DNA of 32,000 bases from Candidatus Methanoperedens sp. (GTDB taxonomy: Archaea > Halobacteriota > Methanosarcinia > Methanosarcinales > Methanoperedenaceae), in NCBI GenBank assembly GCA_041494705.1, contig JBGQBI010000004.1, forward strand, positions 240,001-272,000, read 5' to 3'. The notes under the pieces were generated by a model. The model did no database searches, was not told the DNA's origin, and saw only the letters and a list, made by a program, of their open reading frames with translations. The translations under genes and the position numbers were made by a program. Positions 26,059 to 27,396 of this stretch are shown here, one piece after another. Position 1 is the first letter of the stretch. Every line of letters begins with the position of its first letter.

Positions 26059-26294
26059 TGACAGAGATAATTCCCGATGAAACGCTGGATGTGCGCGGCG
26101 AATGCTGCCCATATCCTCTTATTTTAACCAAGAAAAAAGTGGAACAGTTAAAAAGCGGGCAGATTTTACATGTGATTGCTGACGACCCGGTCGCGCCCCA
26201 GAACATCGATTCCTGGGCGAAAAAGTCAGGGAACAAACTGCTTGCCGTAAAGCAGGACGGTAAGATTTTCAATATTTTTGTGCAGAGGACTTAA
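26058..26294 (+). CDS. tusA: TusA/SirA-family sulfurtransferase
   Basis: LDVRGECCPYPLILTKKKVEQL is the CPxP active-site motif. The start overlaps the upstream stop (TGATG). Confidence 0.85.
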   Translation: MTEIIPDETLDVRGECCPYPLILTKKKVEQLKSGQILHVIADDPVAPQNIDSWAKKSGNKLLAVKQDGKIFNIFVQRT

Positions 26295-26917
26295 ACCCCA
26301 TATGCCCACAATTCGATAATCTTATATGTTATACTGTTTTTTTTAATGAATTCCATAATCTTATTTTTATTTTCAGCAGGAACGGCAATAACACTCCGTT
26401 CTATTTTTTTACCTGATAATTCTTCCAACAGCCCTTTTGAAACAAAGATTTTCTCCCCAACTCTTTGCTTGTAGCCGTATAATTCTCTCCAGAGTTTAAT
26501 CTTTTTGTTCCTGTCCATCCTGCTGAAATCCAGGACAAACATGGCATAATATTTCGCTCCTTTCGGCATTTCTTCAAATTTCCCATATAAAATGATGCCG
26601 CTGCTGATAACGCTTCTGTAAATATCCCATTTCTCAAGCTTGCCAGCTTTTATCGACAGAGGATTCTTCAATCCTTTGAGTCCCCATTTTTCATTTATCT
26701 CTGATTTTTCAAATGCCTTCATCAGTTTTTTTATGGCATTTTCAACGGCTTTTTCTTTTTCCGTATCTATAAAAATGTCTATATCACTTTCGCTGTCAAA
26801 GTCCCCGCGTGCTACTGAACCAAAAAGAATTATTTTGTTTATGTCGGCGCCTATTTCCGACTTCAGCAAAAATGAGGAAAAATCCATAGCATAAGCTACA
26901 AGTTCATTTTTATTCAT
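26291..26917 (-). CDS. Nucleotidyltransferase-domain protein with ~95-aa C-terminal extension (Cas2/VapD-like by eye)
   Basis: The NTase signature is ILFGSVARGDFDSESDIDIFI. The C-terminal part YYAMFVLDFSRMDRNKKIKLWRELYGYKQRVGEKIFVS... resembles the Cas2 N-terminal beta1-alpha1-beta2 pattern. Confidence 0.75.
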   Translation of the reverse strand: MNKNELVAYAMDFSSFLLKSEIGADINKIILFGSVARGDFDSESDIDIFIDTEKEKAVENAIKKLMKAFEKSEINEKWGLKGLKNPLSIKAGKLEKWDIYRSVISSGIILYGKFEEMPKGAKYYAMFVLDFSRMDRNKKIKLWRELYGYKQRVGEKIFVSKGLLEELSGKKIERSVIAVPAENKNKIMEFIKKNSITYKIIELWAYGV

Positions 26918-27308
26918 TGAGTATCCCCAGAATAATCATCTCAACTTCGTTGAAAAGTTCTATAATCTCTTTTATGTTCTCTTTCGACTTTGGGGCACCG
27001 TAGGTCAGCAACTCGCTTGAATTTTCCAGAACAATCATTTTTTTAAGAATCTTGTCCTTATTCTCAAAAGCAGGTAGTTTTTCAGAGACCTTTTCAGACT
27101 TGAACCACCTGTGATTTAGCTGAAAGCCTTCATCAACAAGCTTTTTCCTGTGCAGATATGCGGAAAGAAGCTCGACTACTGCTCGCGAGGCATTAAGCCC
27201 GACGGTTCTCTGGGATTTCTCCAAGCCTCGTATCTCAAGAGCCCATGAGAAAATGTTGTCTTTATATTCCTGATACGCTTTCAGGTGGTCTTCCTCTTTC
27301 ATGAGCAT
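26910..27308 (-). CDS. Helical 132-aa partner protein (possibly divergent HEPN-like), unknown function
   Basis: It overlaps the downstream NTase gene by 8 nt. The segment SRAVVELLSAYLHRKKLVDEGFQLNHRW loosely recalls the HEPN helix pair. No clean Rx4-6H motif is present. Confidence 0.5.
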   Translation of the reverse strand: MLMKEEDHLKAYQEYKDNIFSWALEIRGLEKSQRTVGLNASRAVVELLSAYLHRKKLVDEGFQLNHRWFKSEKVSEKLPAFENKDKILKKMIVLENSSELLTYGAPKSKENIKEIIELFNEVEMIILGILNE

Positions 27309-27352
27309 GTTATTATGTGACCTGATACATAAAGGTTATGTTACCTTGTCGC

Positions 27353-27396
27353 ATATGTGACATGGTATATAAAATTTTTGAGACCATGTCGCATAT
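27353..27396. promoter_or_regulatory. 14-bp inverted repeat bracketing a TATA-like box upstream of the 132-aa/NTase operon
   Basis: The left arm ATATGTGACATGGT (27353-66) matches the reverse complement of ACCATGTCGCATAT (27383-96) at 13 of 14 positions. The spacer contains TTTTATATA when read on the minus strand. Confidence 0.5.

Follow-up and report, generated by a model that had tools for sequence, protein, structure and literature searches.

The closest described relatives of the element considered here are the HepT/MntA toxin-antitoxin systems of type VII (Shewanella SO_3165/3166, Aphanizomenon, Legionella; PDB 7bxo, 7ae9, 8xeh), mobile cassettes, multi-copy within genomes, in which two adjacent and overlapping small genes encode a four-helix HEPN toxin with an RX4HXY motif and a minimal nucleotidyltransferase (MNT) antitoxin with a GSX10DXD motif. 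The usual MNT-HEPN dyad has the antitoxin first, and inactive HEPN domains often serve nucleotidyltransferases (NTases) as substrate-binding modules (PMC3710099). The same survey describes MNT-associated HEPN-T proteins, including PaREP1/PAE0096, in a group that "lacks R but H is conserved" (PDB 2q00; Anantharaman et al. 2013, PMC3710099), and an MNT-HEPN fusion has been reported from DPANN archaea (Makarova et al. 2019, PMC6393860), an architecture that differs from the one studied here. We analyzed a 32,000-nt stretch of a Candidatus Methanoperedens sp. contig (JBGQBI010000004.1, forward-strand positions 240,001 to 272,000; hereafter the window, whose own numbering is used throughout) that carries a two-gene cassette and its upstream region at 26291-27396. 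On balance we lean towards reading it as a divergent, autoregulated, type VII-like HEPN-like/MNT cassette in which a C-terminal domain of the MNT protein would repress the promoter and the MNT domain would neutralise or modify the partner, possibly at Tyr103.

The open reading frame (ORF) list places gene 1, for a 132-aa helical HEPN-like partner, at 26910-27308 and gene 2, for a 208-aa MNT protein with a C-terminal domain, at 26291-26917, both on the minus strand. Within gene 2, residues 1-115 (26573-26917, minus) form the MNT domain as judged by Pfam, NCBIfam and Foldseek, and residues 116-208 plus the stop (26291-26572, minus) form an unannotated basic α+β domain in the AlphaFold2 model, which is predicted to bind the operator. 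The start codon of gene 2 sits within the end of gene 1, in an 8-nt overlap read directly from the sequence (ATGAATAA, 26910-26917, minus), which suggests translational coupling, and related loci repeatedly show overlaps of 4-8 nt or more. Both the coordinates and the direct reading bear out the two-gene minus-strand operon with an 8-nt overlap that a first-pass annotation, made from the window's sequence alone, had proposed. Most gene 1 homologues begin at the third codon (M3, 27302), and judging from these the start is probably M3 and the product 130 aa. The canonical MNT-then-HEPN pair with which that annotation contrasted the cassette is also real: it lies on the minus strand, is confirmed by Pfam and consists of a 111-aa MNT (23234-23569) and a 127-aa HEPN protein (22854-23237; PF05168, E 1.4e-19) with a 4-nt overlap, the window holding two differing HEPN/MNT-type modules 3 kb apart.

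The 208-aa protein had been called an NTase with a GS...DID motif, and this was confirmed. Pfam Polbeta (E 2.4e-10) and NTP_transf_2 (E 8.4e-10) match residues 25-113, and the GSX10DXD motif of type VII MNT antitoxins is intact (G33-S34-x10-D45-I-D47), with G33, S34, D45 and D47 invariant across 51 aligned homologues. NCBIfam MntA_antitoxin matched the MNT domain below threshold. In the AlphaFold2 model of the whole protein (predicted local distance difference test, pLDDT, 90.4), the best PDB neighbours of the NTase part found by Foldseek are the MntA-type antitoxins 8xeo, 8xeh, 7bxo and 7ae9, and PDB sequence and profile searches with the 208-aa protein gave matches to the MNT part only.

The extra C-terminal region noticed in the first-pass annotation was likewise found to be genuine and unannotated, residues ~116-208 having no Pfam, NCBIfam or PADLOC family match and 39 domain sequences scanned against the same three collections giving nothing. 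AlphaFold2 (pLDDT about 86-95) models it as a ~93-aa domain with a ferredoxin-like β-α-β-β-α-β core and an extra conserved β-hairpin (β 122-130, α 136-147, β 148-153, β 156-161, a short helix, β 170-173, β 176-180, α 181-193 and β 197-205). Its motif is W143-R144-x-L-Y147-G148-Y149-x-Q151, with R144 (149/157) and G148 (157/157) near-universal in the extended domain set. With a median pI of 9.9 and a net charge of +10, the domain is strongly basic, and +9 of this charge lies in helix α1 and the hairpin; the MNT domain is near neutral, as is the partner (median net charge +1.5). An exhaustive profile search recovered 395 representative proteins carrying the domain, and the best 150 of these include 81 MNT fusions and 16 clear stand-alone versions (~87-99 aa). 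A profile search of the PDB with the domain was null, its only match, filamin-B, being dismissed as noise. In one 264-aa protein on a 1-kb contig (P0313) the domain is joined C-terminally to a family-2 glycosyltransferase (PF00535, E 7e-30), an arrangement that may be real or may have arisen in assembly or gene calling. Limited literature searches returned no description of the domain or of an NTase-Cas2-like fusion, in keeping with the earlier remark that such a fusion was not recognised as a described system.

Upstream of gene 1, the inverted repeat that had been noted around a TATA box is present as described: 13 of 14 positions pair between ATATGTGACATGGT (27353-27366) and ACCATGTCGCATAT (27383-27396), bracketing a distal TATA box, TTTTATATA (27366-27374, minus), that lies 58 nt from the first ATG. 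Repeat and motif analysis placed it in a longer, unstranded operator array (27314-27396) made up of two tandem ~40-nt promoter/operator units (27314-27353 and 27354-27393, 78% identical) and half-sites, the distal TATA belonging to the upstream copy of the unit. A proximal TATA-like box, TTTATGTA (27326-27333, minus), is found 23 nt before the M3 ATG. Half-sites of the form TATGYGAC/GTCRCATA occupy 27314-27321, 27348-27355, 27354-27361 and 27388-27395, with a degenerate half-site at 27337-27344 (TATGTTAC; GTAACATA on the minus strand). Read along the minus strand, the order is TATGCGAC (27395-27388), a degenerate half-site, the distal TATA (27374-27366), GTCACATA overlapping TATGCGAC (27361-27348), GTAACATA (27344-27337), the proximal TTTATGTA (27333-27326), GTCACATA (27321-27314), the ATG of M1 (27308) and that of M3 (27302). 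The exact TATGYGAC motif has five matches in the 32-kb window, where ~1.1 would be expected, and four of them fall within 27314-27395 on alternating strands; TATGYGACNNGGT with one mismatch or fewer also has five matches, four in the same interval, a total that 0 of 100 shuffles reached. The fifth exact match, TATGTGAC at 27786-27793 (+), falls within the Endo_dU gene at a distance of 390 nt from the array and is probably due to chance. A sigma-70 promoter scan was uninformative for an archaeon.

When 38 operon upstream regions were aligned on the TATA box, the related loci showed TTTATATA followed after about 21-23 nt by the ATG. Given this spacing in homologues that start at M3, and the 23 nt in the window, we predict from the sequence that the proximal TTTATGTA is the main promoter, with transcription starting near 27303 and a leaderless mRNA. 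Generic palindrome counting proved too noisy and was replaced by a position-specific regular expression of half-site, B recognition element (BRE) and TATA, which in its strict form matched 15 of the 38 operons and gave 28 matches in a 1.08-Mb background of locus sequence. The matches include all five operons in which the domain stands alone (at -42 to -44 from the start codon), and among the ten others nine are at -40 to -43 and one (L012) at -62. The common layout has TATGYRAC/GTMACATA or ATTACR half-sites abutting the BRE/TATA at a fixed distance of -40 to -44 from the start codon; it is conserved across phyla and present in most related loci and in the stand-alone-domain operons, which much strengthens the original suggestion that the repeat is operator-like. 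In the TATA-aligned upstream regions the type of half-site tracks the sequence of helix α1 in the domain: [LIV]WRxLYGY goes with GT[AC]AC / CTAAC, [FAV]IRxL[FL]GY with ATTAC and IRxLFGR with GGTATAAAATATACC, and further operator types are found in other domain subfamilies.

Stand-alone genes of ~90 aa occur in DPANN genomes (loci L172-L180, e.g., L172:2052-2330, L175:3001-3279 and L177:3001-3282), and five were inspected in their contigs. None of these five operons has an NTase or a homologue of the 132-aa protein. Four have a giant ORF (784 to >1300 aa) downstream, either overlapping or after a short gap, and the contig of L180 ends just past the stand-alone gene. No Pfam domain is present in the giant ORFs, whose N-terminus is hydrophobic, and three of the encoded proteins are homologous to one another (25-39% identity over ~900 aa); we regard the giant proteins as secreted. 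The stand-alone genes are in the position of a regulator upstream of these proteins and do not lie beside cas1. Their promoters share the layout of the cassette, with one or two palindromes, such as TATGTAAT-N4-TTACATA, that run into an ATTACR half-site abutting a purine-rich BRE and TTTATAWA. Because the C-terminal tail of the MNT protein is basic, the stand-alone operons share this layout and the half-site changes with α1, the most economical reading is that the tail is most likely a DNA-binding domain acting as an autorepressor.

The 132-aa protein was said to lack a clean Rx4-6H motif, and direct reading agrees: no R-x(4-6)-H is present in it, the Arg/His spacings being R42-x10-H53 and R54-x11-H66. 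None of its 114 homologues has a Pfam domain or a functional name, and scans of Pfam, NCBIfam and PADLOC gave no match to the protein itself or to 46 members of its family. Q33, R34, N65, H66, W68, F69, E95, E99 and Y103 are invariant in the family, Tyr103-Gly104 is (nearly) so as a pair, and the family motifs are SQR, GFQLNHRWFKS and LExxSExLxYG. AlphaFold2 models the protein as a bundle of four long helices (pLDDT 94.8), and the top Foldseek matches are enriched for HEPN structures (2q00, 2hsb, 3o10, 1o3u and 7ae9; E 0.1-1, template modelling (TM) score 0.46-0.62), with the PaREP1-type HEPN-T 2q00 first and including the HEPN domain of sacsin (3o10, TM ~0.6) and the HepT toxin (7ae9). Bacterioferritin, the best PDB sequence/profile match of the partner, was dismissed as noise.

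Comparison of the 132-aa protein with HEPN profiles, a check proposed in the first-pass annotation, gave an answer that points both ways. Using hhalign, the partner aligned with the window's canonical HEPN protein at E 0.0079 (probability 5%, 33% identity, 48 co-linear columns) across helix 2 and the subsequent His loop, which speaks for a relationship; the lack of a Pfam HEPN match in 46 family members speaks against it, and a HEPN profile built from neighbouring loci gave weak or null results against the partner alignment. The partner family aligned with the partners of divergent loci over the LxYG stretch (E 0.023), and the latter aligned with canonical HEPN neighbours at E 6.6e-4. In the best-aligned of these neighbours (L047), an R-x4-Y-G stretch corresponds to S-E-L-L-T-Y-G in the partner, with Tyr103 aligned to its Tyr and its Arg position held by Ser or Cys in the partner family. 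A positionally equivalent partner at another locus (L038) has sub-threshold Pfam PaREP1 and HEPN matches (E ~4e-4). We call the partner HEPN-like, and not a demonstrated HEPN, because no member matches Pfam HEPN or PaREP1. By its residues it would fit the category of HEPN-T lacking R but keeping a His (PMC3710099), since it is an archaeal, MNT-linked HEPN-like variant with the Arg lost and a His kept, with 2q00 as the top structural match and with the L038 matches to PaREP1 and HEPN; it differs from PaREP1/PAE0096 in its conserved motifs and in the lack of a Pfam match among the 46 members.

Clustered at 90%, the homologues of the 208-aa protein number more than 400; their sources include Methanoperedens and Aenigmarchaeota, and their length is tightly kept at ~205-208 aa. 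A scan of one genome per species for an NTase with the C-terminal domain gave 36 loci, mostly in DPANN (Woese-, Nano-, Pace-, Aenigmat- and Undinarchaeota) and in Methanosarcinales. The neighbourhood survey that had been suggested supported linkage of the pair, as about 30 of the 36 have a gene of the 132-aa family directly upstream, running into the start of the NTase gene; in more divergent members (Bathyarchaeia, Nitrososphaera, some Methanosarcinales) the partner position is taken by another helical gene of ~120-130 aa. Adjacency and overlap are conserved, and the HEPN-like gene comes first, in line with the earlier description of an atypical operon. The flanks vary by locus, being Endo_dU/TusA in the window and in a 95%-identical relative (L086) and PyrI/AA_kinase, Pelota, GXGXG and others elsewhere. 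Because the gene pair is conserved while the flanking genes differ, this is a horizontally mobile two-gene cassette that behaves like an addiction or defence-type element and not like a housekeeping operon. One Woesearchaeota metagenome-assembled genome (MAG; JACPBV01) has the fused cassette twice, and an operon with the domain alone besides, on three contigs (JACPBV0100000012, 22 and 5; L010, L014 and L175). The operator variant differs for each of the three, which suggests insulated paralogous regulator/operator pairs.

Set beside type VII HepT/MntA, the cassette shares the two adjacent, overlapping small genes, the GSX10DXD motif of an MNT whose closest structural neighbours are those very antitoxins, a HEPN-like partner of four helices whose conserved Tyr is close to the C-terminal helix pair, and mobility with multiple copies in a genome. 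It departs from it in the partner, which lacks RX4HXY (Ser/Cys at the Arg position and no His in the aligned stretch), in the reversed gene order, in the additional ~93-aa domain of the MNT protein and in the tandem operator/promoter array, which a limited literature search did not find described for type VII. As an autoregulated cassette, it may work as follows. The C-terminal domain, probably dimeric, would bind the half-sites with the basic helix α1 and the conserved β-hairpin that follows, and in doing so would occlude the BRE/TATA of the two tandem promoter copies and repress the leaderless bicistronic mRNA. The MNT domain would bind and neutralise the HEPN-like partner, possibly by nucleotidylylation of the invariant Tyr103 in the Y-G motif. 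Having lost the catalytic Arg, the partner, if it is toxic, could act by RNA binding or through an alternative site formed from Q33/R34/N65/H66.

Several points weigh against this reading. Classing the partner with HEPN depends on weak scores (Foldseek E 0.1-1, hhalign probability no higher than 5%), the Pfam scan of 46 family members found neither HEPN nor PaREP1, and the absence of RX4HXY makes a role as an RNase toxin doubtful. The HEPN-like gene precedes the MNT gene, whereas the usual dyad opens with the antitoxin. Phylogeny is a confounder where α1 and the operator change together, and the partner also diverges at those loci; the palindromes at L175, L177 and L179 are also weaker than those at L172 and L180. 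Ferredoxin-like domains that bind DNA sequence-specifically are uncommon. Lastly, DNA binding, neutralisation and toxicity are putative roles drawn from sequence and context.

With that said, a DNA-binding domain on an MNT protein has a precedent among the related loci. On the contig of L091 (1-850, minus) there is a canonical module in which a 215-aa MNT protein with an N-terminal winged helix (HTH_24, E 7e-5) is followed by a PF05168 HEPN protein. The same contig also carries a copy of the cassette studied here. Classical type II antitoxins autorepress through palindromic operators, and the cassette resembles these and the L091 MNT in having a DNA-binding role proposed for the antitoxin-type protein and palindromic operators that overlap the promoter. 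It differs in that the putative DNA-binding module is C-terminal and is not a helix-turn-helix (HTH), ribbon-helix-helix or AbrB domain but an α+β kind absent from Pfam, NCBIfam and PADLOC. The papillomavirus E2 and EBNA1 proteins have a dimerising β-α-β-β-α-β domain that reads palindromic sites with helix α1, so such a fold can bind DNA sequence-specifically; this is an analogy only and implies no homology, and the E2/EBNA1 domains were not among the listed PDB Foldseek matches of the 208-aa model.

The first-pass annotation had compared the C-terminal region with Cas2, and a Cas2/VapD-like nuclease or effector would make the operon a new NTase-Cas2-like defence or toxin system. Part of that comparison held up, as the domain and Cas2 (PF09827)/VapD are alike in size (the stand-alone versions being Cas2-sized at ~90 aa), in the ferredoxin-like core and in a basic, nucleic-acid-binding character, and Foldseek matched the domain to the Cas2 protein SSO8090 (3exc; probability 0.98, TM 0.58 on the target, root-mean-square deviation 2.9 Å, 20% identity). 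The E-value of that match is 0.13, however, and other generic ferredoxin-like folds score alike, including a procarboxypeptidase prodomain and YebC in the PDB and an ACT-like domain in a viral library in which Foldseek found only NTase and generic ferredoxin-like matches; the β1-α1-β2-β3-α2-β4 order seen in the domain is common to many unrelated families. Homology and nuclease function were not supported. Pfam Cas2, VapD and PaaX models, which it had been suggested to search, did not match any of 39 domain sequences even at E <= 10, and an hhalign comparison of a 157-sequence domain profile with a 75-sequence Cas2 profile gave a probability of 1% over 20 columns, a limited negative given that the Cas2 alignment (SSO1404 homologues and 65 metagenomic Cas2) comes mainly from one archaeal clade and carries no secondary structure. 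The hydrophobic strand ending in Asp, taken at first as a sign of Cas2, does not hold across the family, since D130, which ends β1, is kept as Asp by 26 of the 51 close homologues and by just 42 of 157 sequences in the extended set, where Ser is commonest; the conserved residues (R144, G148, Y149) are basic or aromatic, not acidic. The extra conserved β-hairpin is a further difference. As for linkage to cas1 or CRISPR-cas, no cas genes lie beside the window copy or most loci, and the stand-alone genes are placed as regulators. One divergent fusion in a "bacterium" MAG (L039:2905-5549) does lie immediately upstream of cas8b (Cas_TM1802, E 1.6e-128), the sole cas linkage among the loci inspected. 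Taken together, the context speaks for an operator-binding domain and against a nuclease or effector, the domain is probably not a Cas2-type nuclease, and we consider a Cas2-based system quite improbable; the new element is the domain together with its operator, and a link to Cas2 is not established.

Two further alternatives were considered. It might not be a toxin-antitoxin system but a two-subunit NTase resembling HI0073/HI0074 or kanamycin NTase, with the HEPN-like protein as substrate-binding subunit, the basic tail binding RNA (tRNA or an RNA 3' end) and some other factor binding the repeats. A partner without an RNase motif suits this, given the substrate-binding use of inactive HEPN domains (PMC3710099), as do a charge that fits RNA equally well as DNA and the wide spread of the family in small DPANN genomes. 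We nevertheless find it unlikely, because more than one copy of the cassette is present in a MAG and its neighbours vary, the operator layout is present in stand-alone-domain operons that have no NTase at all, and operator and cassette change together, as suits an autoregulator acting in cis. The other possibility exchanges the roles of the two proteins, so that the 132-aa protein is the operator-binding repressor and the C-terminal domain an ACT/RAM-like ligand-sensing or oligomerisation domain. The partner does diverge in loci with different operators, and ACT-like and other regulatory ferredoxin folds are among the weak structural neighbours of the domain. This seems very improbable to us, as the stand-alone-domain operons keep the layout without any 132-aa homologue, the partner has a median net charge of +1.5 compared with +10 for the domain, and its invariant residues lie in the HEPN-like His loop and the Y-G motif, with no recognisable DNA-binding motif.

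Returning to the domain as a DNA-binding autorepressor, a broader proposal can be made, which we offer tentatively. The domain may represent an unrecognised archaeal family (DPANN, Methanoperedens) of sequence-specific regulators with a ferredoxin-like fold, Cas2-sized and E2-like, that alone would control genes for giant secreted proteins and, fused to an MNT, would repress its own HEPN-like/MNT cassette, in which the partner no longer has the RNase motif. A Cas2/VapD-like ancestor turned to the recognition of DNA may lie behind it. If the domain does bind the operator, a new family of DNA-binding domains would be added to the small regulator repertoire of archaea, in lineages (DPANN, ANME-2d) whose genes are for the most part unannotated, together with a concrete operator/protein pair. 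The cassette would also illustrate how a type VII-like HEPN/MNT module can gain autoregulation through a non-HTH domain, and the stand-alone versions might control giant surface proteins thought to mediate contact between DPANN and their hosts. Should DNA binding not hold, an ordinary but divergent HEPN/MNT cassette would remain.

In the window, the cassette looks to have been inserted between housekeeping genes. A sulfur-relay cluster of a DsrE/DsrF/DsrH-like trio and TusA (24982-26294, plus) converges on it, with the stops of TusA and the NTase overlapping by 4 nt, and the Endo_dU gene (27446-28015, minus) is directly upstream. Further along is a multi-haem cytochrome-like ORF (30245-30874, plus) with weak Cytochrome_C7 and MtrC/MtrF matches; this and a protein identity of 94-96% to Methanoperedens entries agree with an origin of the window in Methanoperedens (ANME-2d). 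There is also a stand-alone Cas4-like PD-(D/E)XK nuclease gene (29450-30214, minus; Cas_Cas4, E 3e-12) with no other cas genes near, which is kept in the syntenic contig L086.

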